A stretch of DNA of 64,000 nucleotides, from the NCBI GenBank assembly GCA_038127095.1, contig JAYPGZ010000001.1:72205-136204 (forward strand), written 5' to 3'. Both the position numbers and the translations under genes were made by a program. The notes under the pieces are model-generated. The model was not told the origin of the DNA. It ran no database searches and saw only the letters and a program-made list of their open reading frames with translations. This DNA comes from Candidatus Roizmanbacteria bacterium. GTDB lineage: Bacteria > Patescibacteriota > Microgenomatia > UBA1406 > HO2-37-13b. Of the stretch, positions 5,745 to 45,934 are shown in pieces (position 1 is the first letter of the stretch; each line of letters starts with the position of its first letter).

Positions 5745-6742
5745 AAAAAGACGATACTATTGTTTTAGATATTAACCTTCGACCATCAACATTGCAGGAG
5801 TATATTGGTCAGGGAAAAGTAAAGCGATCATTACAACTCTTCGTAGACGCAGTTACTAAGCGAGGTGTTGTGGCAGAGCATTTGCTTTTTTATGGCCCTC
5901 CGGGCATGGGAAAAACGACGCTGTCGCACATTATTGCACGAGAGCTTAATGGAGAGCTCAAAACGACTTCAGGGCCAGCTATTGCTAAAACTGGAGATTT
6001 GGCAGCAATTCTCACCAACCTAAAAGATAATGACGTGTTGTTTATCGATGAAATTCATCGACTCCCTAAAGCTGTTGAAGAGGCGCTGTATCCGGTTATG
6101 GAAGATTTTTCGCTCGATATTATTATTGGAAAAGGACCTTCGGCTCGAACCATGCGATTACCAATTCCTAAAATTACTATTGTTGGCGCCACAACGCGTT
6201 TGGCGCTCCTTTCAGCTCCACTGCGAGATCGGTTTGGCATGACACTTCGATTAGATTACTATACCGATGAAGAAATGGCGCAAATTGTTTTAAGATCGGC
6301 AAAATTGTACGACATTCCCCTGTCGACTGAAATTGCCACACTTATTGCAAAACGTGCGCGACGAACTCCTCGATTGGCAAATCGAATACTCAAACGTGCG
6401 CGCGATCTGTATGAAGTAAAAAAGCTCAAAGAAATTACTCCGCAAGTTATTGATGATCTATTTTCGATTCTTGAGATTGATGAAATAGGTTTAACTGATG
6501 GGGATCGAAAATATTTGCTTGCAATAATTGAAAAATTTGATGGCGGTCCGGTAGGCGTGAGTACACTTGCGCATACGCTGTCTGAGGATATACAGACTAT
6601 TGAAGAATATATTGAACCGTACCTAATGCGCATAGGATTTCTAAAAAAAACTGGAAAAGGACGGGTGGTTACGCCTAAAGCATATTCTCATTTGCATATT
6701 TCTCCAAAAAAACAGCCAGTGGAACAGACGAGGCTGGCGTAG
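5741..6742 (+). CDS. ruvB: Holliday junction ATP-dependent helicase RuvB
   Basis: LLFYGPPGMGKTTL Walker A, VLFIDEIHRL Walker B, RuvB-like C-terminus; 4-nt overlap with ruvA. Confidence 0.9.
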   Translation: MKKDDTIVLDINLRPSTLQEYIGQGKVKRSLQLFVDAVTKRGVVAEHLLFYGPPGMGKTTLSHIIARELNGELKTTSGPAIAKTGDLAAILTNLKDNDVLFIDEIHRLPKAVEEALYPVMEDFSLDIIIGKGPSARTMRLPIPKITIVGATTRLALLSAPLRDRFGMTLRLDYYTDEEMAQIVLRSAKLYDIPLSTEIATLIAKRARRTPRLANRILKRARDLYEVKKLKEITPQVIDDLFSILEIDEIGLTDGDRKYLLAIIEKFDGGPVGVSTLAHTLSEDIQTIEEYIEPYLMRIGFLKKTGKGRVVTPKAYSHLHISPKKQPVEQTRLA

Positions 6743-8478
6743 TATAATAAGCTTTCAGATATTTGCCCGGGTGGTGAAATTGGTATACACGCAGTCTTGA
6801 GGAGGCTGTGCCGCAAGGCGTGGAGGTTCAAGTCCTCTCTCGGGCACCATACAGAACTTTTTAGATAATATTTTGCTTTAGCCCTTTGTAATGGGCTTCT
6901 TTTGGGTTCGAGCGGGCTTAATTTCTTCTTTGTTTTTTGACTACCCCTTTTATACCGAATAAACAGATATCGAAGCTGAAACTTCAAATTTTGATCTAGT
7001 AGGATTGGGTTCGAGCCGACAGTCTTAAATATTACTTTTTTATCATCAGATTCCCCATTTCCAAACCGTTCAGCTGCTCGCAACCCGAACTCAAAGCTAT
7101 CTTTTGCAATATCTGCCCATTCGTTCTTCCCTGGAGCTGTTTGTTCTAGTTGTTTTGTGATCTTTTCTTTCTCAAGAAGTAGTACTCTTTTTCTGTCCGC
7201 AAACTCCTGATCAGAAAGTAACGCTCCATCAGAGTTATCAGGTGAGATTTTGAGGGAGACAAGATTGTTAATTCGTTTCGTTACTCCCTCAAGAGCTTTT
7301 TGTAAGGCTTCGTGGCTTGTGGCAACAACAGTACTGTCCTGAGTTTTAACTTTCTCTAGTGCTTCTAGGGCAAGCTCGGCAAACTCCGGCATAAGTTCAA
7401 GTTCGGTCAATTCATCTTTAAATTGATCTTCTAACTTGCCCGATGACAGATAGGGCTGATTACATTTGTTTTCCTGGTTCTTCTTTGTACATCGATAGTA
7501 CGCAAAAACTTGGGAAGTACCATTTTTGTAATGTTTTGTGTGTGATTCGACGGTAATACAATATCCACATTCTCCACATTTAATAATCCCGTTTAATGCG
7601 GAATCGTGTTTATGTGGCTTTCCTTTTGCTCTACCATCGACAATATCTTGTAAAAGGTTAAACTCATCATCTGATAAAAGCGGAGGATGCTGTCCTTGAT
7701 ACATTCTTCCACAATAGATAAATTTGCCTGTATAGAATGGATCTCGGAGTAACCTATGCATTGCACTCTTGCAGATAGGTTTGCCACTTTTTGAGCTTCT
7801 GATGCCCAAATTTGCTGCTTCTTTAACAAGCCGTTCCACACTATAGTTACCAGTTAACGCAAGATCAAATAGCTTTCTCATTAACGTAAAATCAGTCGGA
7901 TGGGCAGAGATATCTCGCAGTCCTTGTGGCTTATCGTGGTTATTCATATATCCCGGACGTGCTTTACCAGGAAAAACGCCCCGTTCGGCTTTTAGCAATA
8001 ATGATTCTCTAACGTTTACGCTTTTATTATCATTCTCAAGCTTTGCCTGGGTGCATAAAAGATTAAGCATGAACTTATCATAGGGGTTATTCTTAAATAC
8101 TTGATATGGCGTAACAACTTCCAGAAGCTTGCCTTGATCCATAAGATATATGATTCTTCCGGTATCAATGGTATTTCGAGATAACCGAGAGGGATTAAGC
8201 AGAACAATTCCATTCACTTCTCCGTCCTCAATCATTTGAATGAGCTGATTAAAAACAGGACGTCCTGGAATTTTTGCGGATTTGGACTCTTGGAATGGGT
8301 CGCCTATAATATGTAAGCCTCTTGATGCTATATATGAAGTCAGAGTGTGTATTTGATCAGGAAGGGACTGAATTTGTCGCTCATCAGACTCACTGCTTTT
8401 TCTGCAATATATTGCATATTTGCTTATCAGTGGAAAATCTTGCTGATTGTTAGTAGTGTTGTATTCCGATAGTCTCAT
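6688..8478 (-). CDS. large serine recombinase (integrase); 3' end reads through the tRNA-Leu gene
   Basis: N-terminal resolvase-type catalytic region (YCRKSSESDERQ), recombinase domain and Cys-rich zinc-ribbon (CGECGYC...C..C). No in-frame stop before 6688, so the true C-terminus is ambiguous; the low-complexity tail (KRGSQKTKKK...) may be read-through. Confidence 0.75.
   Translation of the reverse strand: MRLSEYNTTNNQQDFPLISKYAIYCRKSSESDERQIQSLPDQIHTLTSYIASRGLHIIGDPFQESKSAKIPGRPVFNQLIQMIEDGEVNGIVLLNPSRLSRNTIDTGRIIYLMDQGKLLEVVTPYQVFKNNPYDKFMLNLLCTQAKLENDNKSVNVRESLLLKAERGVFPGKARPGYMNNHDKPQGLRDISAHPTDFTLMRKLFDLALTGNYSVERLVKEAANLGIRSSKSGKPICKSAMHRLLRDPFYTGKFIYCGRMYQGQHPPLLSDDEFNLLQDIVDGRAKGKPHKHDSALNGIIKCGECGYCITVESHTKHYKNGTSQVFAYYRCTKKNQENKCNQPYLSSGKLEDQFKDELTELELMPEFAELALEALEKVKTQDSTVVATSHEALQKALEGVTKRINNLVSLKISPDNSDGALLSDQEFADRKRVLLLEKEKITKQLEQTAPGKNEWADIAKDSFEFGLRAAERFGNGESDDKKVIFKTVGSNPILLDQNLKFQLRYLFIRYKRGSQKTKKKLSPLEPKRSPLQRAKAKYYLKSSVWCPREDLNLHALRHSLLKTACIPISPPGQISESLLYYASLVCSTGCFFGEICK
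6765..6849 (+). tRNA. tRNA-Leu(GAG), long variable arm, CCA encoded
   Basis: Acceptor GCCCGGG/CTCGGGC, anticodon loop TTGAGGA, variable arm TGCCGCAAGGCG, T-arm GGAGGTTCAAGTCCTCT, then ACCA. Confidence 0.8.
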
Positions 8479-8659
8479 GGTGCCTCCTTTCTTCGTGGGA
8501 AATTAAGACAGAATTTGTTTTGGATGTAGGCTTTAGAAGTACTTTCATAAGATTCACCAGATCAGTAGCCATTGCCGTTGCTTCCTCATCAGAAAGCGCA
8601 ATATTAAACTTTTCGTGATACAGCTTCTTAAACTTTTCTTGCAATTCTTTATCTATCAT
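8450..8659 (-). CDS. small hypothetical protein upstream of, and overlapping, the integrase start
   Basis: 69-aa ORF, 29-nt overlap with the recombinase N-terminus; divergent from an XRE regulator across a palindromic operator. Confidence 0.3.
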   Translation of the reverse strand: MIDKELQEKFKKLYHEKFNIALSDEEATAMATDLVNLMKVLLKPTSKTNSVLISHEERRHHETIGIQHY

Positions 8660-8667
8660 ACTTTAGT

Positions 8668-8707
8668 ACTACAACTATAGTTATAGTATAGTAACTATAG
8701 TTGTAGT
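8668..8707. promoter_or_regulatory. perfect 15-bp inverted repeat (ACTACAACTATAGTT / AACTATAGTTGTAGT) with 10-bp spacer; candidate operator
   Basis: Read directly in the intergenic region between the divergent small ORF/integrase and the XRE HTH gene. Confidence 0.55.
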
Positions 8708-8743
8708 TGTCAAGCGTAAATGAGTAAAAACTGAAGCTAAAAT

Positions 8744-9013
8744 ATGCCTATTGAATTAATTAACCAAAATATGAGCTATACTATTATTATGAATGCAATT
8801 GCAAACCAAAGGAGCCAGCTGGCATTTGGTAAAAACCTCAGAGAGGAACGGGATCGTAAAAACCTGTCACAAGAGGATGTAGCGCAGAAAGCAGGAATAT
8901 CCGTTACGTATTATGCTGGTATTGAGCGAGGAGAAGAAAATCCTACTTTTGCAGTGCTTGAGCAAATATGTAAGGCACTTAGAGTGAAATCTTCACAGGT
9001 GCTTCCTTTTTAA
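8744..9013 (+). CDS. XRE-family helix-turn-helix transcriptional regulator (Cro/CI-like)
   Basis: LSQEDVAQKAGISVTYYAGIERGEENPTFAVLEQICKAL is a canonical XRE HTH. Confidence 0.7.
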   Translation: MPIELINQNMSYTIIMNAIANQRSQLAFGKNLREERDRKNLSQEDVAQKAGISVTYYAGIERGEENPTFAVLEQICKALRVKSSQVLPF

Positions 9014-9364: not shown

Positions 9365-11911
9365 ATGAGTAACGCTGAATTATCACAATTTCTCCCATCA
9401 TACCTCGTTCCTCTTTTTTCGCATAGCAATATTAATTATTTACAGATCATATTACCAGCATTTATTGTTGGAACAATAATACTAACGGTATTAATTAAAG
9501 TAATACGTTTGAGATTCGTTATTCATAAGCCTTATACGCTCCTTGAAGTAAAACCGGTATATAAAACATTGCAGAGTCCTTTGTCTACACAGCGCTTGTT
9601 TACTGTCCTACATTCACTTGAAAAACATGCTTCGCTTACAGAGAGTCTGTTTGGAGTAAAGCAGACTGTAAGTTTTGAACTGATTTCCGACAAGGAGAAA
9701 GGTATAAGGTATATTATTCGGGTTCCAGCAAATAAAATCTCACTTATCAAAAAAACCCTACTTTCCTATTTACCAGGAATTGAGGTGCAAGAGACTGAGG
9801 ATTTTTTACCGAATAGTTTCGTTCAACTGCTAGAAAATAAATATTTCGCTGTAAAGGAGCTAAAACTTCCCAAGCCCTATGTAATCCCGCTTCAGAAGCA
9901 AGATAAACTTGATCAGCATGACCCAATCGCATATTTGACCGGTCATATGACCAAGCTTAAAACAGGCGAATTGGCCGGTCTTCAGATTGTAAATACGCCT
10001 ATTCTGCAGAGAACACACAAATCAATACACAGTCATATATCGAGACTTAAAAATCTCATGATGTCAGGGATCGATTTAAGAAAAGAACTGTATAAGGGAC
10101 GATTCCACAAGCTTTATAGTGCATTGGAGTTTATGATTCAGGGTGAAAAGAAGGAAACAATCAGTCAATCAAGGAGAGAGTTATATGAAGCTATTGAGGA
10201 CAAAATAAACGAGCCTTTGTATGAATGTACAATCCGCTTATTCGTATTAGCAGACAGCAGATTATCAGGTATTAGTCGCATGAATGGATTGCAGTCATCA
10301 TTTGATACGTTTGCCTCAGCTCATCAGTCATTTACAGTAAAGCATATATTTCTCACAAAGATTAATGGTAATATTTTGAATAAGATCCGGTTTTATTTTA
10401 TTAGTAACAGACTGCTTTCATTTACGCAAAACCCTGTTCTATCGGCATCTGAGCTTTCATCGCTATATCATCTACCATACACCGCAACAACCAAAACAGA
10501 GGATTTGATTAATGTTAAGAGTCCAAAGCTGCCATCACCACTCCCTTTAAAAAGCTCGGTAAACAATCTAGATATGGTTTTTGCCCATAACACATATGGT
10601 GAAACAACTGTTCCCATAGGCCTTACACTCGAGGAGCGCAGACGACATATGTATATCATTGGAGCAACGGGTACAGGAAAAACAACGGCCTTGTTGCACA
10701 TGATTCATCACGACCTTTTAAAAGGGAGTGGTGTTGCCATCATTGATCCTCATGGTGATCTCACACAGCGACTGCTTGGAGTTATTCCAAAAGAGAGAAT
10801 ACAAGATGTTGTATATTTCAATCCGTACGATATTGAGCAGCCGGTCGGGTTAAACATCCTTGAACTTTCTGATAATCACAGTGAGGTTGAAACACAGCGC
10901 GAAAAAGACATGATTGCGTCGAGCATGATATCTATTTTCCATAAGCTCTATCCTCCCCGCTACACAGGCCCTCGTATGGAGCATATTTTAAGAAATACGG
11001 TCCTTACGGCGCTTGAACTTGAGAGTCCCACACTACTTACCGTGCACAAGTTGCTCACCGATAAAGATTTCAGAAAGAAAATTGTAGCAACACTTCCGAA
11101 AGGAGTCCTTAAGGATTTCTGGAATAATGAGTTTGGCAAGTTGGGTAGTTTTCAGAAAGCTGAACAGATAAGCCCTATCACAAATAAACTTGGCCGCTTT
11201 CTTACTACTTCAATTACCCGCAATATCCTTACACAACCTGAATCAAAACTGGACTTTACCGATATTATGAATAACAAAAAGATTCTGCTTTGTGACCTGT
11301 CAAAAGGAAAAATAGGCGAGGATACTTCGTCCTTCTTGGGAAGCCTTGTTGTTGCAAAGATCCAACTTGCTGCCCTTAAGCGGGTTGATATACCCGAGAA
11401 TAGGCGCACAGACTTCTTCTTATATATCGACGAGTTTCAGAATTTTGCCACACCAGCCTTTGCACAGATTTTGTCAGAGGCAAGAAAATATCGACTAAAT
11501 ACCATTCTTGCTCATCAGACAATTTCACAAATCGAGGATAAGGATCTGCTGAAGGTAATACTGGCAAACGTGGGGTCCATAATATCATTTAGGACAAGTA
11601 ATCCTGCTGATGAAGATATGATGCTTCCGTTATTTGCTCCAGAGGTTGAGAAGTATGAGATATCAAACCTTCCCTCGTATCACTTTTACATGAAAATTAA
11701 TGCAATTACTCCTCAGAATGCATTTACGGGAGAGATTGATAAGTTTATCGCCGATGATGGAAAGGATGCAAGAAAGTTAGTCATTAAAAACTCACAAGAA
11801 AAATACGGGGTAAAAATACAAGCTAGCAATGATAACAGAGTCTCAACCTTAACGGCAGATAAAATTACTCCAAATGAAAAGGAGCAGACCACTGCAAGAG
11901 CACTTTCCTGA
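9365..11911 (+). CDS. VirD4/TraG-like type IV coupling protein ATPase with long N-terminal extension
   Basis: N-terminal TM helix; Walker A IIGATGTGKTTALLHM followed by IIDPHGDL (the DPxGE-type motif shared by VirD4/VirB4 families); Walker B LYIDEFQNF; ...ILAHQTISQ. Confidence 0.6.
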   Translation: MSNAELSQFLPSYLVPLFSHSNINYLQIILPAFIVGTIILTVLIKVIRLRFVIHKPYTLLEVKPVYKTLQSPLSTQRLFTVLHSLEKHASLTESLFGVKQTVSFELISDKEKGIRYIIRVPANKISLIKKTLLSYLPGIEVQETEDFLPNSFVQLLENKYFAVKELKLPKPYVIPLQKQDKLDQHDPIAYLTGHMTKLKTGELAGLQIVNTPILQRTHKSIHSHISRLKNLMMSGIDLRKELYKGRFHKLYSALEFMIQGEKKETISQSRRELYEAIEDKINEPLYECTIRLFVLADSRLSGISRMNGLQSSFDTFASAHQSFTVKHIFLTKINGNILNKIRFYFISNRLLSFTQNPVLSASELSSLYHLPYTATTKTEDLINVKSPKLPSPLPLKSSVNNLDMVFAHNTYGETTVPIGLTLEERRRHMYIIGATGTGKTTALLHMIHHDLLKGSGVAIIDPHGDLTQRLLGVIPKERIQDVVYFNPYDIEQPVGLNILELSDNHSEVETQREKDMIASSMISIFHKLYPPRYTGPRMEHILRNTVLTALELESPTLLTVHKLLTDKDFRKKIVATLPKGVLKDFWNNEFGKLGSFQKAEQISPITNKLGRFLTTSITRNILTQPESKLDFTDIMNNKKILLCDLSKGKIGEDTSSFLGSLVVAKIQLAALKRVDIPENRRTDFFLYIDEFQNFATPAFAQILSEARKYRLNTILAHQTISQIEDKDLLKVILANVGSIISFRTSNPADEDMMLPLFAPEVEKYEISNLPSYHFYMKINAITPQNAFTGEIDKFIADDGKDARKLVIKNSQEKYGVKIQASNDNRVSTLTADKITPNEKEQTTARALS

Positions 11912-11942: not shown

Positions 11943-12770
11943 TTATTCCTCTGTCTTCTCAAGACGTCCGATAAGCATCTCCAGCTCATTAAGAAACGGA
12001 TGATCCCATTTTCGTTGAGCCATTTTGAGAACCTCTTTTTCAAACCACAACTTTTTATCTTTTCCGCGATTGAATTTTTTCCACAGAGCCGCCCCCTCTT
12101 TATCATATTGAGTAAAAAATGACCGTAGATTAACTATTTTGTCTGCAATGCATACAGCGATTGCTTTTTCTCCACCAGCCTCAACCGATCGGATATACTT
12201 CTCTTTTTTCTTTTCCCAGTCCCTTTTATCAGACAGCTGAGCATCGTTTGATACCGCTTTTACAATCCGAAGCACCTCACTGCCACAGGCTTTTTCAATC
12301 TCAGCCTCGGTGCAATCAGTGTCTTCGAGGAGATCATGGCATAAGCTTGCTGCTATAACTTCAACAGGAAACTTTTGCCGCCACCAGAGTAAATGACTGA
12401 TGTCAAGCAGGTGTTCCATATCCGGGTGATCATCGCCTTTTCGTCGAAGTGGGCCATGATAAATAAGTGTCAACTCAAGGGCTTTTTTTACCATCGGGTC
12501 CAATAAGACCATACTGGCACGAAATTGTCCGCGACTTTTTTTGGATAATATTTCGTAGTCATATCCACAATCCTCAGCAACATTAAACCATGCATTATAT
12601 GACTTCGGACTATCATTATCGCGCATGAATAACTCAATAGCACGTGTTACTAAATGTGCCAGATTATCGCTCTTTTCCACTACTGAGTACTTTTCATCAT
12701 CATATATATCAGCATTAGGTATGGAGTCGAGAAGATCAATTTTGATCAAAAAGTATTGCATATAATTCAC
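11943..12770 (-). CDS. HD-domain (p)ppGpp hydrolase of RelA/SpoT type (small alarmone hydrolase-like)
   Basis: HD motif LCHDLLEDTDCTEAEI plus downstream conserved block (...IADKIVNLR...) typical of the Rel/SpoT hydrolase domain; no synthetase domain. Start possibly at an internal Met (MVLLDPMVKK). Confidence 0.6.
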   Translation of the reverse strand: MNYMQYFLIKIDLLDSIPNADIYDDEKYSVVEKSDNLAHLVTRAIELFMRDNDSPKSYNAWFNVAEDCGYDYEILSKKSRGQFRASMVLLDPMVKKALELTLIYHGPLRRKGDDHPDMEHLLDISHLLWWRQKFPVEVIAASLCHDLLEDTDCTEAEIEKACGSEVLRIVKAVSNDAQLSDKRDWEKKKEKYIRSVEAGGEKAIAVCIADKIVNLRSFFTQYDKEGAALWKKFNRGKDKKLWFEKEVLKMAQRKWDHPFLNELEMLIGRLEKTEE

Positions 12771-12904
12771 CCCCTTTTTGTAAATAAACTTGGGGCTGCA
12801 ATGGACGCGGTTGAAAGTATGTCTTGGGTCGTGAAGTCAACCACCGCTAAAGCCAATATAAGTATAACAGGATGCATAGATTATAACAACAGCGTGTTAT
12901 AAAC

Positions 12905-13567
12905 CTATTTCGACCTGTATCTACTGATAATGCTACTTAAAATTTGCTTTCCCTGTTTGATACTTTTGGATAAATCACTCTCTCTCGTGCCAACTATCAC
13001 ATTGAGTTCATGGGGGTCTTTCCTAAATATTTCAGTGAAAACCCTGTATACAAACTCTGTAATTGCTTCATTGTCTCTGCCAAAATCCGCATTAAGTGTG
13101 TCAAATTCATCCGCCACTTTCGGTTTATGATGATAGTAACAATATTTTTTTATGGTGATTTCACCCTCAGTAAAGGTAAAACCCAAATCTTCAAGAAGTT
13201 TTCTCGTCTGTTTCATATATGGGAGGTGTCTGTTTCCGGGTAATATTGGAAAATCCATAATCATGCTATGTCGCTCTATAGCAAACTGAACAAACTCTCC
13301 TTCTTCATCTCCAACTTGGAATATGACATAGGTAACTCCTGTTAAAGGCTTTAGGATTTCAGTAAGTACAAAGCTAATATAGCCTCTTGGGTCATCGAAT
13401 TGTGATTGTTTTTCAATAAGACGATTTTGAAGCAGCTCTACGCGTTCATCCCGATCAAAGTACTTTGCAACCAGAATTTTATCTTTATATATTACATGAA
13501 AGTATTTACTAGGGTGCAAAGCGTTCAGGTACTGAGCAATTTTATCTTTCAATCTCTTATTATTCAT
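12905..13567 (-). CDS. hypothetical protein
   Basis: 220-aa ORF, 8-nt overlap with the upstream protease gene. Confidence 0.45.
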   Translation of the reverse strand: MNNKRLKDKIAQYLNALHPSKYFHVIYKDKILVAKYFDRDERVELLQNRLIEKQSQFDDPRGYISFVLTEILKPLTGVTYVIFQVGDEEGEFVQFAIERHSMIMDFPILPGNRHLPYMKQTRKLLEDLGFTFTEGEITIKKYCYYHHKPKVADEFDTLNADFGRDNEAITEFVYRVFTEIFRKDPHELNVIVGTRESDLSKSIKQGKQILSSIISRYRSK

Positions 13568-15083: not shown

Positions 15084-15123
15084 GATTGAAGTATACTACA
15101 AGAGAAGAGTCTTTTAGAAAATA

Positions 15124-15894: not shown

Positions 15895-15937
15895 GATTTT
15901 ATCCTTAGTTTTTAGCTAAACGCAAATTTCAATTAAA

Positions 15938-24542: not shown

Positions 24543-24543
24543 T

Positions 24544-36224: not shown

Positions 36225-36462
36225 TGCAGCTCTTGCCGCAGCTATCTTCATACGCACATCTGCAACTTTAGCTGCATGCTTCGCATGCACAGCCGCGAGT
36301 TCATCGTGTTGGATAGGGCCTTGAACATCCTCGTCTTGTAATTGTGGTATTGCACCTGGCTTTTCTTCCACCATAAACTGGGAAATGAAACTATTAAGTG
36401 CATATATTCTCTCACAATCGGAATCTCATGTCAATAGCCTTCGAGCGACAACATAGTGCCTA

Positions 36463-37017: not shown

Positions 37018-37076
37018 CCCAGTATGACGATAGTAAGAATGGTCTTACCTCATACTATTCAACACGCTCTGATGCG

Positions 37077-37400: not shown

Positions 37401-37403
37401 CCT

Positions 37404-38213
37404 ATGAAAAGTGTGCGGATATATAAAGACAATATTCGAGAACATGTATTGCGAAGTCTATTTTTTACCGATACCGCAATTGCTATCGGCGGAGCGATTG
37501 TGATTGCTGCCGTCGTATTTGTCATATTCAAATATTTCCTGCATTTCTTTGATTGGGGATATTATGGATTGACGGTTCTTACCTGCGAAGTGTTTTTCAT
37601 TGGACTGGTTACGCAAAAGCTTGATAATCAGCCTATCTACAAGATTGTGCCACGGGGATTGAAACATTCGGTAAGCAAAAAGAATTTACGCCATGCTGAT
37701 ATTGATTCATACTTCACTGACTTTGCAATTCAAGACAATCTGATTGTCCGCAAAAACAGTATTATCTCGATGCTTGCGGTTGAGCCGTATGACATTGCAC
37801 TCCTTAATGATCAAGACCGAGAACATTTCTTTGTCAAAATCAAGCAAATGATCCATGTCTTGCCCTCAGGAGTCCAGTTTATTATCAGAAAAGAAAGAGC
37901 AACGATGGAAGAATATTCAAAGCATGTGTCTTCCTTATACAAAGATGCCAACACTAAACGAGAACCACTGATTCACAATTACTTAAAAGATCTATCAGAT
38001 CTCATCAGTAACCACTCATTTGTCACCATGCGCCACTACGCGGTGTTTTCCGTCAGTTGTGACAGCAAAAAGGCCAATGAAAAGGTAAAAGCAATCAAGA
38101 AGTTATCAGATATGAGTATTCGATTTGCCTCGGCATTGTCTGCCTGCAATATTACGGCTACACCACTTACAAACAATGAACTGTTACACGTTGCAACCAC
38201 CACCCTACGATGA
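37404..38213 (+). CDS. membrane protein, possibly VirB3-like / VirB4 N-terminal-like partner
   Basis: Two N-terminal TM helices; 4-nt overlap with the VirB4-like ATPase gene. Confidence 0.4.
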   Translation: MKSVRIYKDNIREHVLRSLFFTDTAIAIGGAIVIAAVVFVIFKYFLHFFDWGYYGLTVLTCEVFFIGLVTQKLDNQPIYKIVPRGLKHSVSKKNLRHADIDSYFTDFAIQDNLIVRKNSIISMLAVEPYDIALLNDQDREHFFVKIKQMIHVLPSGVQFIIRKERATMEEYSKHVSSLYKDANTKREPLIHNYLKDLSDLISNHSFVTMRHYAVFSVSCDSKKANEKVKAIKKLSDMSIRFASALSACNITATPLTNNELLHVATTTLR

Positions 38214-40366
38214 GAAAAACAACCAAAAAACAAACCAATGGGAAACATCCGAACAAGGTACTTATTACGCTGGATCGCTTTAATGTGAGTCGAAAGCTAA
38301 AAGAAGAAGTAGAGCTTTTAAGTATTGAAAAGGCAAAGAAGGTATATGAACTTAACAAAGTCCTGAAGGAATACAAACTTTATGAAAAGAAAAATACGGG
38401 ACTGCAAAAAATTGAGGAACATTTCTTTAATGGAGAACCAAAACTGCACCAAAATGCACTCACCCTGGCACTTCGGGAAGAAATTGGGCGACTCATGGAT
38501 ATTATCAAGTCACAACAGGAGATGATTGCCAAAGAATCATTTGTGCAGAATGAATTACCACAAATACGCAAGCCTGAGTTTGTTGCAAGCAACAATCCGA
38601 TCAAGCTACTTCGCAATTACCGAGCATATAAAAAAGAATTGCAAGAATATCATCAGGCTATCCATGAATCAAATATAACTGATTTTCATTTTGTCCTTGA
38701 AAAAGATGAAAAAGGATTAGTCATTGAGCGAGATGGAACCAAGAAATACAAAGCAGACTATTTACAGGAAAAAAGTTCTCATTTGCAAGTCGGTGAAAAA
38801 GTCAGGCGATTCTACTATTTAGCTGATATTCCCGCTTACTTAAGTCCCTATGTGTTTTTTAGACTGCTAACTTCCAGTTTACCGTTTACCTTAAGCGTCT
38901 TTGTACAACCAACACCGAGTGGTGAACTTTTGAAAAAAGCCAGACAAAGACTCTCTGTCTTGGAAATGCAGCAAAACGATCGGTTGAAAGCTGGAAAACT
39001 CAGAGATCAACAGATTGATAAAAATATCGAGGAGGTTATGTCCTTTATTGATGAACTTGTGCATGAAGCCGAGAAAGGGATTGTGTATTCATTGTATTTA
39101 CAGCTTGAAGCTGACAGTGAAAAAAAACTCGCTGCGCTTCATAAGCAACTCCAAAACGTAACAAGTGCGATGGATATTACATTTAATCAATATACCTTCG
39201 GTCACAAGAGAGCATTCAAGAATTTCTTACCCTTTAATCAAGATCATGTCAAAGAAAATAGGATTTTGCAGTCAACGGCAGCTTCATACTTGATGCCGTT
39301 TGTGTCAAAACAGTTAAATGATCACAATGGTATTTTTATGGGTGTGAATGCATACAATAATAGCTTGGTGTTTATTGATCCATTTACCTCCCGAAACAAT
39401 AATATCAACATCTTTGGTGTCTCGGGGTCTGGTAAAAGTGTGACAGCTAAAACCTTGATGAACCGCCTCTATATGCGTGGTGTGCAAATCATTGTCATTG
39501 ATCCTGAAGGAGAATATATTGATCTTGCCAGATCTTTAGGAGGAGAAGTTATTCAATTTTCGAGAGAGAATGGGATTAACCCTTTTTATATCAATAGCTC
39601 TAATGAAAATGATATTTTAGATCATATCTCAACGCTTAAAACCTTCTTCAAATTCTTTATCCCCGAACACCACTACGATGGCGCACTTTTAGATGAAAAG
39701 CTCATTAAGCTCTATGACAGCTCATCGCCGTCATTTGAGAACTTACTGGAGCTTCTAGGTGATAGTCCCATGACACGAGATTTGAGTGTGTTATCAGATG
39801 GAAGTTTGCGGGGTGTATTTAACTCAACTCGACGACTTGAGCTCAATAACGACATCATTGTCCTTGATTTGCATGACCTGAAAAAAGATGAGAAACGAGA
39901 TCCTGCCATCTATCTTTTGACGTCGCTTATTTGGAACTTGGTTAATAAGGCAAATGGTAAGAAACGCATGCTCTTTATTGATGAAGCGCACAAGTTACTG
40001 GTTGATCCAGAGGTCGCTGTATTCTACCGAGAATTGGTCAAGCAGGCTCGTAAGCGCAATGTGGGAGTCGTGTCGATTACGCAGGATGTCGAAGACTTTT
40101 TGCATAATGAATATGGCAAAGCGATTATTACGAACTCTGAAACAAAAATTTTACTCAAGCAATCATATGCCACGCTTGATCAGATTGGCACGATTTACCC
40201 CATGACGGATGAGGAAAAACAGCAATTGGGACATTTGGAGATTGGAGAAGTAGTACTTTTCAGAGAAGGAGAACATATTCGACTCAATATCTTAGTATTA
40301 CAACATGAGCAAAACTTAGTATTTACCTCATTTAGTACTTCGCATGAGTCTGATCAGCAAAGTTAA
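38210..40366 (+). CDS. VirB4/TraC/TrbE-like conjugative ATPase
   Basis: Walker [27 protein letters not shown], Walker B KRMLFIDEAHKLL, C-terminal ...VSITQ. Confidence 0.75.
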   Translation: MRKTTKKQTNGKHPNKVLITLDRFNVSRKLKEEVELLSIEKAKKVYELNKVLKEYKLYEKKNTGLQKIEEHFFNGEPKLHQNALTLALREEIGRLMDIIKSQQEMIAKESFVQNELPQIRKPEFVASNNPIKLLRNYRAYKKELQEYHQAIHESNITDFHFVLEKDEKGLVIERDGTKKYKADYLQEKSSHLQVGEKVRRFYYLADIPAYLSPYVFFRLLTSSLPFTLSVFVQPTPSGELLKKARQRLSVLEMQQNDRLKAGKLRDQQIDKNIEEVMSFIDELVHEAEKGIVYSLYLQLEADSEKKLAALHKQLQNVTSAMDITFNQYTFGHKRAFKNFLPFNQDHVKENRILQSTAASYLMPFVSKQLNDHNGIFMGVNAYNNSLVFIDPFTSRNNNINIFGVSGSGKSVTAKTLMNRLYMRGVQIIVIDPEGEYIDLARSLGGEVIQFSRENGINPFYINSSNENDILDHISTLKTFFKFFIPEHHYDGALLDEKLIKLYDSSSPSFENLLELLGDSPMTRDLSVLSDGSLRGVFNSTRRLELNNDIIVLDLHDLKKDEKRDPAIYLLTSLIWNLVNKANGKKRMLFIDEAHKLLVDPEVAVFYRELVKQARKRNVGVVSITQDVEDFLHNEYGKAIITNSETKILLKQSYATLDQIGTIYPMTDEEKQQLGHLEIGEVVLFREGEHIRLNILVLQHEQNLVFTSFSTSHESDQQS

Positions 40367-41111
40367 GACGGCTCATGCGTTTAAAAATGATCCGTTTGGC
40401 TTTATAGCTGATCTGGTCATTACCGTTATTGCCAACCTCGTTATTCCCATTCCTTTAGCTGGAGAAGCCCTGAAAGCATTTAAAGGTCCCATCTTGTGGC
40501 TCCTTGGCTCATTCATCCTCCTTGGGATATTTATGCTGATTGTCATCGGAACCGTTGTCTTTTCTCCCGTGATTGTCAGTACTACCTTTTTTGATCGTAT
40601 TGCTACACTTGGAACTCCAGGTTCGCTTAATGTTTCATATGATGGCACATTTGCCGAGACCTCTATCCCATATCAAAATCCACTTGGTGGAACTGGCATG
40701 ACCTATACCTCAGTTACTGCATACTTTCATGACCCTGCCTACTTTCTGCAATTTGGCAGGATTCATAACGGAATAGATTTAGTTCCAACCGACACATATT
40801 ACAAAAATAGCAAAACATATCAGGAAGTACATCAAGTGATCGCGTTTTCAACTATTAATGGCAACGCACGATCATATATTGATGAGTTTGGATCACAAAC
40901 GGTGGAAGTTACGAATGATGATAGTACCTTACAAGCTGTCTTTATGCATTTTAAGCAGATATTAGTAAATGATGGAGAAATCAAGGCAGGAACACCACTA
41001 GGCGTTATGGGGAAAACAGGGCTCGCGACTGGAGAACACGTACATTATGAAATACGAGTTAAAAGTGGTTCAAACTGGACACCGGTTAACGCATTAAGTT
41101 ATATACAATAA
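40344..41111 (+). CDS. M23-family peptidase (peptidoglycan hydrolase, VirB1-analogous) with N-terminal TM anchor
   Basis: HNGIDL...FMHF...GEHVHYEIR signature of LytM/M23 metallopeptidases. Confidence 0.7.
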   Translation: MSLISKVKTAHAFKNDPFGFIADLVITVIANLVIPIPLAGEALKAFKGPILWLLGSFILLGIFMLIVIGTVVFSPVIVSTTFFDRIATLGTPGSLNVSYDGTFAETSIPYQNPLGGTGMTYTSVTAYFHDPAYFLQFGRIHNGIDLVPTDTYYKNSKTYQEVHQVIAFSTINGNARSYIDEFGSQTVEVTNDDSTLQAVFMHFKQILVNDGEIKAGTPLGVMGKTGLATGEHVHYEIRVKSGSNWTPVNALSYIQ

Positions 41112-41115
41112 CAGT

Positions 41116-41868
41116 ATGAAAGATATTGCAGTTAATCCATTAACACAAGGACAACGAAGAATACTTCAATTAGGAGTAGTATTTTTACTGTGTATCTTTC
41201 TCATTGGATACTTTTTTATGATGAGTCGGACCAAAAATACCACGGTGTATTTGCAAAATGAAACTCTACAAGTATTTGATGAAACTATACCGTTTGCCTA
41301 TCCGGACAAATTGGAGCTGCACTTTCCCTACTTACTTGTTGTTAAGCCAGAAGAGCACAAGACACTTGTATATGATCTACAAGAGAAACAAAAAAAAGAA
41401 GAGGTTCAACATGTAATCTTAGACTACGCACAGGAACAGTCCTTATATAACGAAGGGGCCAGTTCATTTCTTAAGGGAGTGAGTTTAAAGGCTTTATGTG
41501 TAGAAGGAATTATTAAATCAAAGAGTGAGATTTTATGTGTCTCAGACAACAAGCTTTTAAGTGTTGATCCTATTTCTAAAAGACAAAGAATACTATATAT
41601 ATCGAGATATATCATTACTGACTTGAATTTGATTGGTGGCAAATATTACTTAGGAGAAATCGATCCTGGAACAAAGAAGAGTTACATTGTTACTGGGGGA
41701 AAACAAATAACCGTACCAAATGTTGTGAGTGTGATCTATGAACTCAATGGGAAACCATACTTTGTATCGCTAAAAGGCGCATTGAATCCTAACAAGGAAG
41801 AGTTTTATGAAATAGAACAGAACAATGCTGTATTGCGAGGAGAAAATAAAATCATGCTTTACGAATAA
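41116..41868 (+). CDS. hypothetical membrane-anchored protein
   Basis: 250-aa ORF, single N-terminal TM helix. Confidence 0.4.
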   Translation: MKDIAVNPLTQGQRRILQLGVVFLLCIFLIGYFFMMSRTKNTTVYLQNETLQVFDETIPFAYPDKLELHFPYLLVVKPEEHKTLVYDLQEKQKKEEVQHVILDYAQEQSLYNEGASSFLKGVSLKALCVEGIIKSKSEILCVSDNKLLSVDPISKRQRILYISRYIITDLNLIGGKYYLGEIDPGTKKSYIVTGGKQITVPNVVSVIYELNGKPYFVSLKGALNPNKEEFYEIEQNNAVLRGENKIMLYE

Positions 41869-41997: not shown

Positions 41998-43446
41998 TTA
42001 TTCCACTACTCTAAATAAAGAGTTTATTTTACTAAATGAGAGCCCTGGATAATTCCATTTGAATCCATACGGGAAAAGGAAGCTTATCAAATCTTTCTTT
42101 TGACTAACTTCGCTATTTCTATATGTATTTTCAAGCTCCGTCATAGATTTTGTAATATATTCACTGGCGCGTTCTATAGTATATCGTTGTAAACGATCAT
42201 TGTTTGTAATTACCTTAATAGCTTTAATATTGTCATCAAGTTGCTCACATTGTTCCCTGAATATTTCATCAGAATAGATACCTGATAAATGTTTTTGAAT
42301 AAGGCTTCTTTTTAACTCGTGAAGCTTTTCAAGATGTCGCTTACTATTCATTCTTTTCTTGTCGATAATTGAAAATCTTTTCATATATTCATTTTTTACA
42401 AGTTGCAAAAAGATTTCCTTTCCATAAGAAGTAATAGTGATTGTCTCTAAAAGGTCTAGGAGCGCTTGATGAATGTGTTTTATTGGTATGTTAGCAGATC
42501 GACATATTTTAGCTTGACGACAGAAATAATAAGCATATCGGCTATTTCTTCCACTGCTCCAAGCACCCGTAAAGAGAGTTTCACATTTACCACACGTAAG
42601 TAACCTTCTTAAAGGAAAGTCTGGATTCAGTTGATTCCTGCGAAATAAAAATGGGTGTTTTGGTCTTCTATTATCAAGAATTACCTGAACCTTATTAAAT
42701 TGCTCCCTTGTAATCATAGGTACGTGTTGGCCTTGGACTTCCTCTTGATATGTCGGAGAATAGAGAACGCCCATATAAAACTTCGAATGAAATATTCTAC
42801 TTATGGTTTGTGGTCGTGTTGGTATTCCCCAGTCATTCATAATAGAAGTAATTTCTCGAAGAGATTTTGTTCCTGTTGACATCAAATCCCAAATTTTCTT
42901 CACCTTTTCAAAGGTTTTCTCATCTTTGAGCACAACTCCATCAAGACTTAGATAGCCAATAGGCGGATGCCCACTATACAGTCCCAATTTAAAACGTGCC
43001 CGCATTCCATTTCGCGCACGCTCACTACGAACATCATTATCAAGCTGAGCAATTTGAGCAAAGAAATTTCCAAGAAACTTACCCATTGGGGTATCATCCG
43101 TGGGTTCTGTAGCTGATATAAGTTTTATGCCAAGATTGCTAAGTTTTTGTTGAATCACTAAATAATCAAAAATCTGCCGTGATAAACGATCAGTTTTATA
43201 GATAATAACTGCCCCAACTTCTTTCTTGTTTTTTTGACAATATCCTAAAAGCTCAATAAGAATAGATCTTCCCGTAATAGTTTTAGCCGATCTCCCTTCT
43301 TCACGAAATACTTTATCTACAACATACCCTCGATATTGTGCTTCTCTCATGCAAATTTCTTCCTGAGTTTTTAGAGAAAAGTTTTCTACTTGTTCTTCTG
43401 TTGAAACTCGTAGATATAAAATGGCTTTTTTTAACGGTTCATTCAT
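41998..43446 (-). CDS. large serine recombinase (second copy type)
   Basis: AILYLRVSTEEQ catalytic motif, ...IYKTDRLSR..., recombinase domain and C-terminal Cys cluster (CGKCETLF...C..C). Confidence 0.8.
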   Translation of the reverse strand: MNEPLKKAILYLRVSTEEQVENFSLKTQEEICMREAQYRGYVVDKVFREEGRSAKTITGRSILIELLGYCQKNKKEVGAVIIYKTDRLSRQIFDYLVIQQKLSNLGIKLISATEPTDDTPMGKFLGNFFAQIAQLDNDVRSERARNGMRARFKLGLYSGHPPIGYLSLDGVVLKDEKTFEKVKKIWDLMSTGTKSLREITSIMNDWGIPTRPQTISRIFHSKFYMGVLYSPTYQEEVQGQHVPMITREQFNKVQVILDNRRPKHPFLFRRNQLNPDFPLRRLLTCGKCETLFTGAWSSGRNSRYAYYFCRQAKICRSANIPIKHIHQALLDLLETITITSYGKEIFLQLVKNEYMKRFSIIDKKRMNSKRHLEKLHELKRSLIQKHLSGIYSDEIFREQCEQLDDNIKAIKVITNNDRLQRYTIERASEYITKSMTELENTYRNSEVSQKKDLISFLFPYGFKWNYPGLSFSKINSLFRVVE

Positions 43447-43634: not shown

Positions 43635-44105
43635 TTACTTTTTAAAGCTTAAGAAGCGTAGTATTTCATGGCTCATTTTTTTACTTTCAATTCTCCTCAT
43701 AATTTCTCTGCTACTATTTTGAGAAAGTATATTCAGACTGCCTTCCCAAATAATTTTTCTATCAATAATAGCAAGTTTTCGGTGAAAATTGCCCTTAAGC
43801 ATTGTTATTTTAACTCCAAGTTCATAGCAGGCAAGTATTTCATTAGTTGCTTGGTATTTAAGAAATTCATCATGCTCGGCAGGATCTCTAGTAATAATAT
43901 GAATTTTTACCTTTCTATCTAATAGGCCTTTAAATATAGGGATTAACATCTCCACTCTTGAGCTTGTTATGAAAGGACATTCGATAATAACCTCGGTCTT
44001 ACTTCTTTTCAGGTCATGAATAAACGCTTGATAGAAGGTATGCTCATCGTGTAAAATAGAGGTGGCCAAATCGGGTTGTGGTGTCAACCATTTTAACCAG
44101 TTCAT
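43635..44105 (-). CDS. PLD-family (HKD) Nuc-like endonuclease
   Basis: HRKLAIIDRKIIWEGSLNIL is an HxK(x4)D(x6)GSxN motif; ~155 aa like plasmid Nuc. Confidence 0.7.
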   Translation of the reverse strand: MNWLKWLTPQPDLATSILHDEHTFYQAFIHDLKRSKTEVIIECPFITSSRVEMLIPIFKGLLDRKVKIHIITRDPAEHDEFLKYQATNEILACYELGVKITMLKGNFHRKLAIIDRKIIWEGSLNILSQNSSREIMRRIESKKMSHEILRFLSFKK

Positions 44106-44215: not shown

Positions 44216-45934
44216 TTGTTTGCTTTCTATAATCCTATAGGGTATAATTTCACTCTTATGTTATCCAAAGAAAATATCAGTTGTCATCCTGCTGTGGCTA
44301 GAAGACTTTTAAAGGCAACAATGCTTTCGACATCCATTTTTACCTCTATGCTTTCAGACGGATCGGCTCGTGGGCAGGAGCCGTTGCCCCAGACGCCTAA
44401 GCGACCATTGTATGTGGTTGGCGATGATACTGCTTCATTTGAATCTACTGGATGCGATCGACTTGTGGCTCGTAGGGCAGGAGATACCCCACCCGATCAG
44501 ACCATTGACGTACAAGGACAATTTTTTGTTTCGGGCGGACATACTGATTTAATAAGAGTTGCTCAAACATCTGAAGAAAATGCGTTTCTTGGTGTGCAGG
44601 GAGTTGCAAATGCACGTCGTAATGTGCTTCCTTTGTTCGAACTGACAGAATCACAAAATCAAGCAGGTGAACAAGTTGATTTACAACAATATTTTATCGA
44701 TCTTGAAGATCACCGATTACCATATGGTGGAGGAGCGGCAGTAATAAAAGGAAATGAAACTGCTGAAGGAAGCGTTTTTCTTCTGGCCACTGTTAGAAAA
44801 GAATCATTTGAAGGACATTTACCTAAAAATGAGCCCGTCGATAATGTATGTGATGCACCTGTGTATGAATTAACATTCTTCCAGAAAGTAACAAGTCCAG
44901 ATACTGGGAAACCTGAATTGCTTGAAGTTGGACGCATGCCAACCGAATTTGGATTACTTGGCAAAATGCAATATGATCCTGATACCAAACAACTCGTCGG
45001 GTTATCGCATAAACGACGAAGTGGAAATGGCACAACATGTGATGATGGAATGTTATTTGTACAGTATCAAATTACTGAGAATAATGGGCAGTATGCACTG
45101 AATGAGCGGCTTTCGGTTCAACTTAATTTAGACGCAGATGCATATACAGGGGTTTCTGATGTTCGTGTGACCGCACTTAATCAAGTCGCACACGACCGAT
45201 TCATTGTTGCAAATGGAACTGCTAAAGCGGTACTGATTAATAGTCAATCGGGCGAACAAAAGATACTGACGTTATCGAATGGATCTAATATACGTGCTAT
45301 TGTGTATGATCCAAGCACAAAAATATATATAGTTTCGGGTGACACTTCCGTAGCAACAGCAAGACTAAACGGAACAGTACTTGAAAAAATTGATGAAGTT
45401 TCAACAAGTCCAACAGCTCCACAAACTGAAATAGTCGGAACAGGTGCACTTGCAGTGGTAGACGAAAAAACAATTGTAGCACCAGCCTCGGTTGGATTTG
45501 CAGATTTTGTTGAAGCTCGGTACGATGAGAACGGTAAATTTATCAGCTCTACATTTCAAATAGTTTGTAATAAAACAGTTGGTGATAATCCTGGGCTAAG
45601 TTTGCCAGCTTATGTGGCTTCAACGTACCAACGCGAATTTATTGGAGCAACACCTACCCCAGTAGCTACTGAAACTGGGACTGCAACACGCACTGATACA
45701 CCTGAACCGACACGGACAGCTACCCCAACGGCAACAGCAACAGTTACCCCCAGACCAACAGCTACTCGTTGGCCGCCTGCTACCAGGTTTCCGGAAGATA
45801 CTCCAACCAGACCAGCTCGTAGTGCCACACCTACGCGTACTGTGCGTTCTGATGCTACCCGAACTCCACACAGTCCATTTATAAAAAATTATATTCCAAT
45901 TGCGGTGCGATCTGCTCGAAATGGCCGACGATAA
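44216..45934 (+). CDS. hypothetical secreted/surface protein with Pro/Thr-rich C-terminal low-complexity tail (start uncertain)
   Basis: C-terminus TPTPVATETGTATRTDTPEPTRTATPTATATVTPRPTATR...; GC visibly higher than surrounding DNA. Confidence 0.45.
   Translation: MFAFYNPIGYNFTLMLSKENISCHPAVARRLLKATMLSTSIFTSMLSDGSARGQEPLPQTPKRPLYVVGDDTASFESTGCDRLVARRAGDTPPDQTIDVQGQFFVSGGHTDLIRVAQTSEENAFLGVQGVANARRNVLPLFELTESQNQAGEQVDLQQYFIDLEDHRLPYGGGAAVIKGNETAEGSVFLLATVRKESFEGHLPKNEPVDNVCDAPVYELTFFQKVTSPDTGKPELLEVGRMPTEFGLLGKMQYDPDTKQLVGLSHKRRSGNGTTCDDGMLFVQYQITENNGQYALNERLSVQLNLDADAYTGVSDVRVTALNQVAHDRFIVANGTAKAVLINSQSGEQKILTLSNGSNIRAIVYDPSTKIYIVSGDTSVATARLNGTVLEKIDEVSTSPTAPQTEIVGTGALAVVDEKTIVAPASVGFADFVEARYDENGKFISSTFQIVCNKTVGDNPGLSLPAYVASTYQREFIGATPTPVATETGTATRTDTPEPTRTATPTATATVTPRPTATRWPPATRFPEDTPTRPARSATPTRTVRSDATRTPHSPFIKNYIPIAVRSARNGRR

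Follow-up and report, generated by a model that had tools for sequence, protein, structure and literature searches.

Type IV secretion systems (T4SSs) are widespread in the Candidate Phyla Radiation (CPR, or Patescibacteria). A survey from 2025 found VirB4 in 2,417 of 3,035 Patescibacteria genomes (~80%), nearly all of it belonging to one clade nested in MPF_FATA, with TrsD and VirB2 near virB4 (Quinonero-Coronel et al. 2025, PMC12102498). The same survey located 148 of 5,713 type IV coupling proteins (T4CPs) within 20 coding sequences (CDS) of virB4 and counted 109 relaxases (58 of them MOB_C) in 103 genomes; recombinases, integrases and tRNA sites are not mentioned in it (PMC12102498). A review from the same year treats the Patescibacteria T4SS as essential for epibiosis. 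Here we describe a T4SS of this type in a 64,000-nt stretch of DNA from a Candidatus Roizmanbacteria bacterium (GCA_038127095.1, contig JAYPGZ010000001.1, positions 72,205–136,204 of the forward strand; hereafter the window), where it lies within a 39.1-kb insertion (6850 to about 45951) between tRNA-Leu(GAG) and tRNA-Val(TAC). The features are collected in Table 1. No description of such elements was found in the literature on integrative and conjugative elements (ICEs) of CPR bacteria, on Patescibacteria serine recombinases or on Roizmanbacteria T4SSs.

The window shares with the surveyed Patescibacteria systems a VirB4 with adjacent TrsD, a VirB2-like pilin, VirB6, a peptidoglycan hydrolase, the lack of outer-membrane parts and the affinity to MPF_FATA. 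Unlike them, it has this cassette inside a bounded insertion together with a recombinase, VirD4 and MobC. Such a combination of a serine integrase with VirD4 and MobC (PF13814) defines class 8 of the streptococcal integrative and mobilizable elements (IMEs) (Coluzzi et al. 2017, PMC5357655). Both have the serine integrase, a canonical VirD4 and a PF13814/MOB_C protein (in the window a candidate relaxase) as one integration and mobilization module, but class 8 IMEs are small, reside in Firmicutes and are devoid of a T4SS, whereas the window adds a T4SS cassette and 20 kb of cargo, belongs to a CPR host and has a tRNA 3' end as target. The ICEs and plasmids of MPF_FATA (CTn2, ICESaNEM316, pGO1 and pCF10, and the Mycoplasma ICEs) resemble the window in their minimal monoderm T4SS with a cell-wall hydrolase, its VirB4 being of the CD1110/Mbov_0397 type and its TrsD as in pGO1. 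The window departs from these monoderm systems in sequence (24–29% identity), in its VirB2-like pilin (normally lacking there), in its MOB_C candidate and in its serine recombinase at a tRNA end. The modules of the element (serine integrase, VirD4, MOB_C, MPF_FATA-like T4SS) are all known ones, and what is new is the CPR host, the lineage-typical T4SS and the targeting of tRNA ends by serine recombinases.

We interpret 6850–~45951 as an ICE-type mobile element integrated into the Candidatus Roizmanbacteria chromosome, with a probability of roughly 60%. An earlier sequence-only reading had proposed that a CPR genome carries, at tRNA-Leu(GAG), an integrative island with genes of the conjugation type. 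The colinearity break and the empty site described below bear this out, and ARAGORN, Pfam, PADLOC and NCBIfam recovered the features it had listed at or near the positions given for them; its size of ~38 kb becomes 39.1 kb. It had also called such an element notable for the CPR. This holds for a bounded, site-variable element with a coupling protein and a relaxase candidate, which is unusual, but not for T4SS genes as such, which are not rare.

Boundaries of the insertion and its tRNA target

The host belongs to the CPR/Patescibacteria, as judged by its RuvB, whose best relatives among GTDB species genomes are metagenome-assembled genomes of Candidatus Roizmanbacteria and Microgenomates. Loci from related genomes and metagenome contigs that were compared with the window carry L-numbers (L002–L134). 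In L003 and L004, with RuvB 96% and 86% identical to that of the window, ruvB is followed by tRNA-Leu(GAG), by tRNA-Val(TAC) after only 7 and 6 nt, respectively, and then by DUF192 and VTT genes as in the window. By blastn, window 3036–6847 is colinear with L003 7295–11101 and window 45952–47118 with L003 11109–12252, and L004 shows the same pattern; the alignment with both breaks at 6847/6848 and picks up again at 45951/45952. The two tRNA genes are also adjacent in L007, and since they are adjacent in all three loci, the adjacency is ancestral and the 39.1 kb are derived. The sequence-only reading had stated that it would fall if related genomes carried the same genes here as conserved core; the nearly abutting tRNAs of L003 and L004, and the occurrence of the island's relatives elsewhere, show the opposite.

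With regard to composition, the tetranucleotide distance to the flank profile was 0.238 ± 0.024 in the island and 0.132 ± 0.011 outside, a contrast that is somewhat inflated by flank segments being part of their own reference profile, while GC was nearly equal (0.388 vs 0.378). The k-mer profiling suggested earlier sets the island apart in its tetranucleotides. The left junction (ruvB, tRNA, LSR1, HTH, VirD4) was recovered again in the Logan assembly of SRR26337526. Exact-protein look-ups of the DUF192, VTT and PLD genes gave neither a strain-level empty site nor a second assembly of the right junction, the PLD gene leading to one 1.6-kb contig only. The closest relative, L002 (RuvB 98% identical), has a contig that stops exactly at the tRNA-Leu(GAG) 3' end (L002 11025–11108), as would be expected of an assembly that breaks off at a variable or repeated insertion.

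These data also bear on the view that the T4SS region is a vertically inherited core locus and the apparent island a product of rearrangement, a prophage or an assembly chimera. The slight difference in GC, the origin of the sequence from a metagenome assembly and the failure to recover the right junction in a second assembly would fit such a view, but it is contradicted by the exact colinearity break at both tRNAs, by the second recovery of the left junction, by the same junction architecture in other contigs from unrelated samples (the set of 11 junctions below) and by relatives at different chromosomal sites. A prophage was ruled out, as Pfam and PHROGs revealed no capsid, terminase, tail, structural or packaging families in the island. 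We consider this view very improbable, and the integration of a discrete element of a recurrent family at 6850–~45951 well supported and highly probable.

The left edge of the island is formed by a gene for a large serine recombinase, LSR1. The earlier description of a serine recombinase antisense over the 3' end of tRNA-Leu(GAG) proved correct: codons 1–543 of LSR1 are encoded by the element (6850–8478), whereas the last 53 run antisense through the whole tRNA and the 3' end of ruvB, and the N-terminal serine motif is kept. A second large serine recombinase, LSR2, lies within the island. Both possess all three domains (Resolvase catalytic domain, Recombinase and zinc ribbon) and fall within 450–600 aa, XisF and CcrB being the nearest NCBIfam families, and yet they are only 25% identical to each other. 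The recombinases found at element edges form three families, namely A (LSR1), B (LSR2 and those of L085, L087 and L134, 44–69% identical) and C (L089 and L133, 70%). Relatives of LSR1 were found in 43 metagenome loci, most of them 59–85% identical and two weaker (31% and 43%). In 10 of the 11 loci that reach past the recombinase 3' end, the LSR1-type open reading frame (ORF) runs antisense into a tRNA gene, the tRNAs hit being Leu(GAG), Leu(TAG), Leu(TAA), Arg(CCG) and Arg(TCG).

When the junctions were aligned on the tRNA 3' end, the tRNA side differed by target and the element side was conserved. All 11 readable junctions of the LSR1 family, the window's included, have CCA followed by TA(C/G)AG(A/G)ACTTTTTA...ATTAG...GGT.CGAGC, and CCA-TAnAGnACTTTTTA can serve as a searchable motif. 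Since the conserved element side follows directly after CCA in the 11 junctions, the island starts at 6850, give or take the CCA. The family B junctions (L085, L087 and L134) and the family C junction in L133 likewise begin directly after the tRNA 3' end; the junction of L089 (family C) revealed no tRNA. A terminal CCA is encoded in 11/11 tRNAs occupied by LSR1-type elements (window 6847–6849 and the junctions among L090–L109). In the ruvB loci (L002–L081), it is encoded by 7/30 tRNA-Leu(GAG) genes that are unoccupied (Fisher p = 1e-5) and by only 51 of all 261 tRNAs. It seems that the CCA is supplied by the element end.

Of the two attachment sites that were to be defined from relatives, attL could thus be placed to the base and attR only within a 23-nt interval (Table 1). 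A repeat search revealed no direct repeat joining the two island ends, as expected for a serine recombinase with its 2-bp crossover; only the repeat pair of a retroelement (see below) stands out. As crossover dinucleotide, both 'TA' and 'AC' were tried, and each model clashes with one junction unless the ancestral spacer was unlike those of L003 and L004. Searches with blastn-short for the right-end half-site in other loci gave chance-level matches only.

Moreover, the integrase ORF is not closed by a stop codon before the element ends and continues antisense into the target tRNA in all three families (window 6688–6849, L085 7882–7956, L087 7949–8027, L133 7636–7710 and the LSR1-family loci). 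Because the ORF crosses the junction, its C-terminus must differ between the integrated and the excised state. The divergent gene for a Cro/CI-type regulator is kept beside LSR1 in related loci where sequence is available (45–74% identical), and the intergenic region between the two contains inverted repeats (8642–8733). In L090, LSR1 is 75% identical to that of the window, whereas the flanking host SBP gene is only 42% identical.

Three further observations concern the target region. L095 has a pair of LSR1-type genes in less than 5 kb (201–4946) beside a single tRNA-Leu(GAG). The upstream member of the pair shares only 34% identity with the LSR1 of the window, and the layout suggests tandem accretion of elements at the same target. 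L072 (11000–14100, on the same contig as L085) carries by ruvB and tRNA-Leu(GAG) a frameshifted LSR1-type gene, fragments of a PLD gene and an orphan tRNA 3' fragment (...GGTGCACCA) that directly abuts an LSR1-type left end 86% identical to window 6850–6930; to judge from these sequences, they look like the remains of a decayed element near the same locus. L003 has extra DNA (12410–19330; ~2.2 kb with three ORFs, and a 1373-aa ORF) inside the tRNA-Leu(TAA)/Thr/Arg cluster (window 47615–47898), and the tRNA neighbourhood around this cluster is a general insertion hotspot.

Candidate transfer genes and their relatives at other sites

The contexts of related elements were obtained through VirB4, VirD4 and LSR1 homologues. 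In other Roizmanbacteria, the host gene is followed by a recombinase (− strand), a small ORF, in some cases the HTH gene, VirD4 (+ strand), Replic_Relax, variable cargo, VirB2, VirB6, TrsD, VirB4, M23 and a ~260-aa ORF. The left flanks of these elements are Obg ... MiaB-like and tRNA-Asp (L087 and L083, CAZOSM01), znuABC, fur and YibE_F (L089 and L082, CAYOFQ01), topA ... L19, HAD and tRNA-Glu (L085, CAZTFB01) and rpoC ... EF-G and tRNA-Lys (L133, ERZ27275293 k141_531251), and in L134 (SRR8893623_173919, Logan) a tRNA-Leu stands at the contig start; in L085 and L133 the T4SS cassette is outside the flank retrieved. Their cargo varies, with a protein kinase and metal resistance in L085, SMODS/SLATT in L083 and AbiEii in L082. 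A VirD4 homologue follows the recombinase in all seven contexts reached through VirD4 relatives (L085–L089, L133 and L134). In the LSR1 family, 13 of ~16 informative loci have VirD4 (36–50% identical), and 8 of these 13 also MobC (32–42%), in the same order as in the window. As judged by equal longest-contig sizes among the best 120 matches listed per protein, which gives lower bounds, VirD4 and MobC share at least 26 contigs (some of only 6–8 kb), VirB4 and VirD4 at least 16, and all three at least 5. Contigs of 26,919, 31,989, 105,110 and 109,050 bp appear to hold VirB4, VirD4 and MobC together. The backbone of recombinase, (HTH), VirD4, MobC, variable cargo and T4SS recurs at different tRNA genes in different genomes.

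The VirD4 of the window has an intact Walker A motif (GATGTGKT at residue 433). It is 53–74% identical to the VirD4s beside recombinases of families B and C, as compared to 36–50% for those beside LSR1-type recombinases, and this affinity suggests that the integration module was exchanged. It also bears on the possibility that the 39 kb go back to two or more elements that accumulated at one tRNA and fused in part, for example an LSR1-HTH module and an LSR2-type VirD4/T4SS element, in which case its mobility as a single unit would be uncertain. The two recombinase families in one island agree with this, as do the paired LSR1-type genes of L095, the LSR1-element and PLD remnants of L072 and the module swapping by tandem accretion that is documented for streptococcal ICEs and IMEs (PMC5357655). 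The recombinases at the edges of L085, L087 and L134, next to tRNA-Glu, tRNA-Asp and tRNA-Leu, are 44–49% identical to LSR2, which might itself be a second integrase, a resolvase or a remnant of accretion. However, neither ARAGORN nor junction comparison detected a tRNA fragment in the 3' flank of LSR2, and the island showed neither an internal tRNA fragment nor a second junction motif. Furthermore, the gene order from VirD4 to the T4SS equals that of single elements elsewhere, and the right-hand genes fit the family layout, as a PLD gene 57% identical to the window's lies ~5 kb right of the T4SS in L082 too. For the latter reason we also gave up an explanation of the island as a circularly permuted LSR2-type element. 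We regard a composite origin as rather doubtful, although it partly overlaps with the ICE reading.

The sequence-only reading had recognised no MOB relaxase and had listed Replic_Relax as a separate feature. This family, PF13814, represents the MOB_C relaxase superfamily (MobC) in CONJscan (PMC5357655), and the protein of the window, here called MobC, scores 39.7 bits against a Pfam cut-off of 25.3. Its structure model consists of an N-terminal winged helix and a restriction-endonuclease (PD-(D/E)XK) fold, which is the architecture of MOB_C relaxases such as TraX of pAD1 (PMC12857230); together with PF13814, it is common to TraX, the MobC of CloDF13 and, by model, the MobC of the window. The protein also matches the PHROG 'replication initiation by nicking', and among its 442 homologues one is named 'replication-relaxation family protein [Candidatus Roizmanbacteria]' at NCBI. 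Taken together, Pfam, the predicted fold and the literature on PF13814 make this protein a candidate relaxase of the MOB_C type. Inverted repeats just upstream of mobC are a speculative candidate for the origin of transfer (oriT). Many MobC homologues have no precomputed PF13814 match and the VirD4 of the window is ~24 CDS away from virB4, so that both would escape the criteria of the survey.

The T4SS cassette (34909–41868) was annotated by Pfam and NCBIfam. It has VirB4 with adjacent TrsD and a VirB2-like pilin and no outer-membrane components, as is characteristic of the Patescibacteria type; the gene previously described as VirB3/4-like is a TrsD homologue, which resembles the N-terminus of VirB4. 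VirB4, TrsD, VirB2 and M23 are intact. Hundreds of CPR proteins are 70–82% identical to VirB4. Among NCBIfam families it comes closest to CD1110 and Mycoplasma-ICE, both monoderm (with scores below the respective cut-offs), and it is 24–29% identical to its counterparts on monoderm conjugative plasmids. This pattern is consistent with, though not proof of, membership in the Patescibacteria clade. The cassette has the same order in L082–L084, where VirB6 is one uninterrupted ORF of 580–616 aa. In the window, a VirB6-like gene is indeed present, as had been noted, but it is split in two by an insert of ~0.8 kb (36201–37013): residues 7–344 of the L084 VirB6 align with 35199–36200 and residues 487–614 with 37014–37397, both in one frame. 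The intervening ~810 nt contain stop codons and replace the 115–142-aa low-complexity linker of the relatives; the reverse 184-aa ORF within them had no family match. The two halves might work as separate proteins; this copy of the island may also be impaired by the split.

Cargo and neighbouring genes

VirD4 is followed, after an HD_4 gene, by a trio of genes for a 220-aa protein, a trypsin-like protease and a Cas4-like nuclease, which are 46/30%, 75/61% and 81/89% identical to those in L133/L134. The trio spans window 12905–15894, L133 12561–15568 and L134 4567–7055, and its nuclease (81–89%) is more conserved than VirD4 (68–74%). The slot behind it holds restriction-modification genes, type I in L133 and L134, and type III (adjacent Mod and Res) with an SNF2 helicase in the window. 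Behind these genes, in L134 as in the window, there is a gene for a protein with FtsK-gamma domains (winged helices of the KOPS-binding type). This protein and that of the following 134-aa ORF, encoded just upstream of mobC, may be accessory proteins for DNA processing.

Diversity-generating retroelements (DGRs) are also known as cargo of an ICE-like island in Legionella. The DGR of the window resembles that example in being carried by an integrative element with T4SS genes, and comprises a reverse transcriptase (RT), Avd and a pair of template repeat (TR) and variable repeat (VR), the VR being located at the 3' end of the target gene, 12–126 nt upstream of its stop codon. All 13 differences between TR and VR fall on TR adenines (minus strand), and the TR is rich in AAY codons. 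It differs from the Legionella DGR in its AAA_5 target with a C-terminal variable region and in its orientation, RT and Avd being on the plus strand and TR, VR and target on the minus strand. At the right edge of the island, a 572-aa ORF without a match in Pfam, NCBIfam or PHROGs could encode a surface protein.

Table 1. Positions of the features of the island and its flanks in the window
Feature	Position	Strand	Size	Basis and remarks
RuvC, RuvB	upstream of tRNA-Leu(GAG); ruvB ends at 6742			Pfam
tRNA-Leu(GAG)	6765–6849	+		ARAGORN; integration target, host side of attL
LSR1, large serine recombinase, family A	ORF 6688–8478	−		Pfam Resolvase, Recombinase, Zn_ribbon_recom; left edge of island
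attL junction and conserved left element end	6847–6930			shared-junction alignment; CCA followed by TACAGAACTTTTTAGATAAT...
HTH_3 regulator, Cro/CI-type	8744–9013	+		Pfam HTH_3, E 2e-16; divergent from LSR1
VirD4-type coupling protein (T4CP)	9365–11911	+		Pfam TrwB_AAD_bind, T4SS-DNA_transf, TraG-D_C
HD_4 protein	11943–12770	−		Pfam
ORF, first of trio	within 12905–15894	−	220 aa	conserved in L133, L134
Trypsin-like protease	13560–15083	−		Pfam
PD-(D/E)XK (Cas4-like) nuclease	15124–15894	−		Pfam
Type III restriction enzyme Res	15938–18610	−		PADLOC REase_III, E 4.5e-182
Type III methyltransferase Mod	18579–20366	−		PADLOC MTase_III, E 3e-163
ORF in defence cargo	within 15938–23797	−	156 aa	
DrmD-like SNF2 helicase	20837–23797	−		PADLOC DrmD, E 2e-207
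Membrane protein with FtsK-gamma domains	23883–24542	+		Pfam FtsK_gamma, E 8e-51, two copies
ORF after FtsK-gamma gene	within 23883–24948	+	134 aa	resembles receiver domain by eye
Candidate oriT, inverted repeats upstream of mobC	24947–24972 and 25021–25072 (region 24947–25072)			repeat search
Putative Replic_Relax/MOB_C-type relaxase (mobC)	25098–25871	+		PF13814
RadC	25878–26294	−		Pfam
DUF2958	26368–26724	−		Pfam
ORF	within 25878–27326	−	138 aa	
DGR region	27556–32017	mixed		
DGR RT	27556–28608	+		Pfam RVT_1
DGR Avd	28608–28967	+		Pfam bAvd
DGR TR	28975–29089	−		
DGR VR	29470–29584	−		
DGR target, AAA_5 ATPase	within 27556–32017	−	853 aa	variable region C-terminal
Transglutaminase-core and VWA protein	32022–34676	−	884 aa	Pfam; adjoins AAA_5 DGR target
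VirB2 pilin	34909–35187	+		
VirB6, N-terminal part	35214–36224	+	336 aa	
Reverse ORF in VirB6 insert	36463–37017	−	184 aa	
VirB6, C-terminal part	37014–37400	+	~107–128 aa	
TrsD	37404–38213	+		
VirB4	38210–40366	+		Walker A at residue 403, intact
M23 peptidase (hydrolase)	40344–41111	+		
Conserved ORF	41116–41868	+	250 aa	
LSR2, second large serine recombinase, family B	41998–43446	−	482 aa	Pfam; internal to island
PLD-family (Nuc-like) nuclease	43635–44105	−		Pfam PLDc_2
ORF with Pro/Thr-rich C-terminal tail	44216–45934	+	572 aa	local GC 0.43
Right boundary (attR)	within 45929–45951			colinearity with L003, L004 back at 45951/45952
tRNA-Val(TAC)	45952–46026	+		ARAGORN; host gene, right flank
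tRNA-Leu(TAA)/Thr/Arg cluster	47615–47895			ARAGORN

Possible conjugation or host interaction, and implications

If the island is an ICE, LSR1 would recombine the attP of a circular form with the 3' end of the tRNA gene, and the HTH protein would control LSR1 expression. After excision, the MOB_C-type protein would bind and nick oriT, possibly the repeats just upstream of mobC, and VirD4 would pass the DNA to the monoderm-type T4SS, with the M23 hydrolase opening the cell wall and the VirB2 pilin making contact. The element would then integrate in the recipient, and the restriction-modification/SNF2 genes, the DGR and the other genes would be cargo that is of use to host or element. Judging by gene content and conserved linkage, we give about even odds that elements of this family are self-transmissible by conjugation now or were so recently; for the present copy we rate the chance lower because its VirB6 is split.

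It should be underlined that several points weigh against the ICE reading. The survey describes the Patescibacteria T4SS as chromosomal, often near dnaA and without a relaxase, and argues for a non-conjugative role (PMC12102498). In Candidatus Southlakia epibionticum (Saccharibacteria), a homologous T4SS was essential for epibiotic growth and the T4CP was not (Wang et al. 2023, as cited in PMC12102498). VirB6 is interrupted here and not in relatives. In MobC, a strand-3 Glu that is conserved in most homologues is Gln in the window and its closest relatives, and the 'PD' aspartate varies within the family. The protein had no tblastn match in the PLSDB plasmids and its profile found no PDB sequence match; the lack of similarity to plasmid genes and the Gln at a conserved acidic position set it apart from TraX and the MobC of CloDF13. 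The empty-site genomes are relatives at the genus level, their flank DNA being only ~70–80% identical to that of the window, and do not amount to a strain-level presence/absence polymorphism. The ICE reading does not account for LSR2, a recombinase of another family inside the island. The LSR1-type loci have no VirB4 within 10 kb, so some relatives may be only mobilizable. The predicted attP junction had no match in viral contigs (one pattern search), and no excised circle, attP or same-lineage attB was seen.

Some of this evidence agrees with a different view, namely that the island is or was mobile and that its T4SS is not a mating pore and serves attachment or exchange between epibiont and host; the sequence-only reading had also named an epibiont-host interaction system as an alternative. 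VirD4 and MobC would then be relics or repurposed, and the whole would be a 'host-interaction island', either transferable or domesticated, or else an ICE in decay. The Patescibacteria-type T4SS in ~80% of genomes, the Southlakia phenotype, the split VirB6 and the Gln in MobC all speak for this, and so do the 70–82% identity of VirB4 across many Microgenomates, a sign of strong constraint, and the VirB2-like pilins, which are unusual in monoderm conjugation systems. On the other hand, the full arrangement of recombinase, VirD4, MobC and T4SS is maintained in several divergent genomes, VirD4 and MobC occur together on contigs down to 6–8 kb in many samples, and Walker A is intact in both VirD4 and VirB4. 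The Gln variant is itself conserved in more than 10 relatives (48–73% identical), and without DNA transfer it is hard to see why a relaxase-type nuclease would be kept beside a coupling protein. We consider a T4SS devoted to host interaction unlikely for this island.

Returning to the ICE reading, we tentatively extend it to a broader proposal, which we rate below even odds: in Roizmanbacteria and other Microgenomates at least, the typical Patescibacteria T4SS may be the mating pore of an ICE family that uses serine recombinases at tRNA 3' ends and a divergent Replic_Relax/MOB_C relaxase missed by standard profiles and by scans of ±20 genes. If this is true, CPR bacteria conjugate, and their many 'orphan' VirD4 genes are signs of integrated elements, either conjugative or mobilizable.

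A large part of bacterial diversity belongs to the CPR/Patescibacteria, whose gene exchange is poorly known. The island and its relatives question the view of the CPR T4SS as a fixed chromosomal feature without a role in conjugation. With a bounded, tRNA-targeted insertion, relatives that carry other cargo and a conserved junction motif, the question of whether CPR bacteria conjugate becomes directly testable. The tRNA-end serine integrase and the candidate oriT/relaxase pair are also candidate genetic tools for uncultured lineages. Finally, elements of this kind are vehicles for defence systems, DGRs and metal-resistance genes in CPR genomes, as the family shows.

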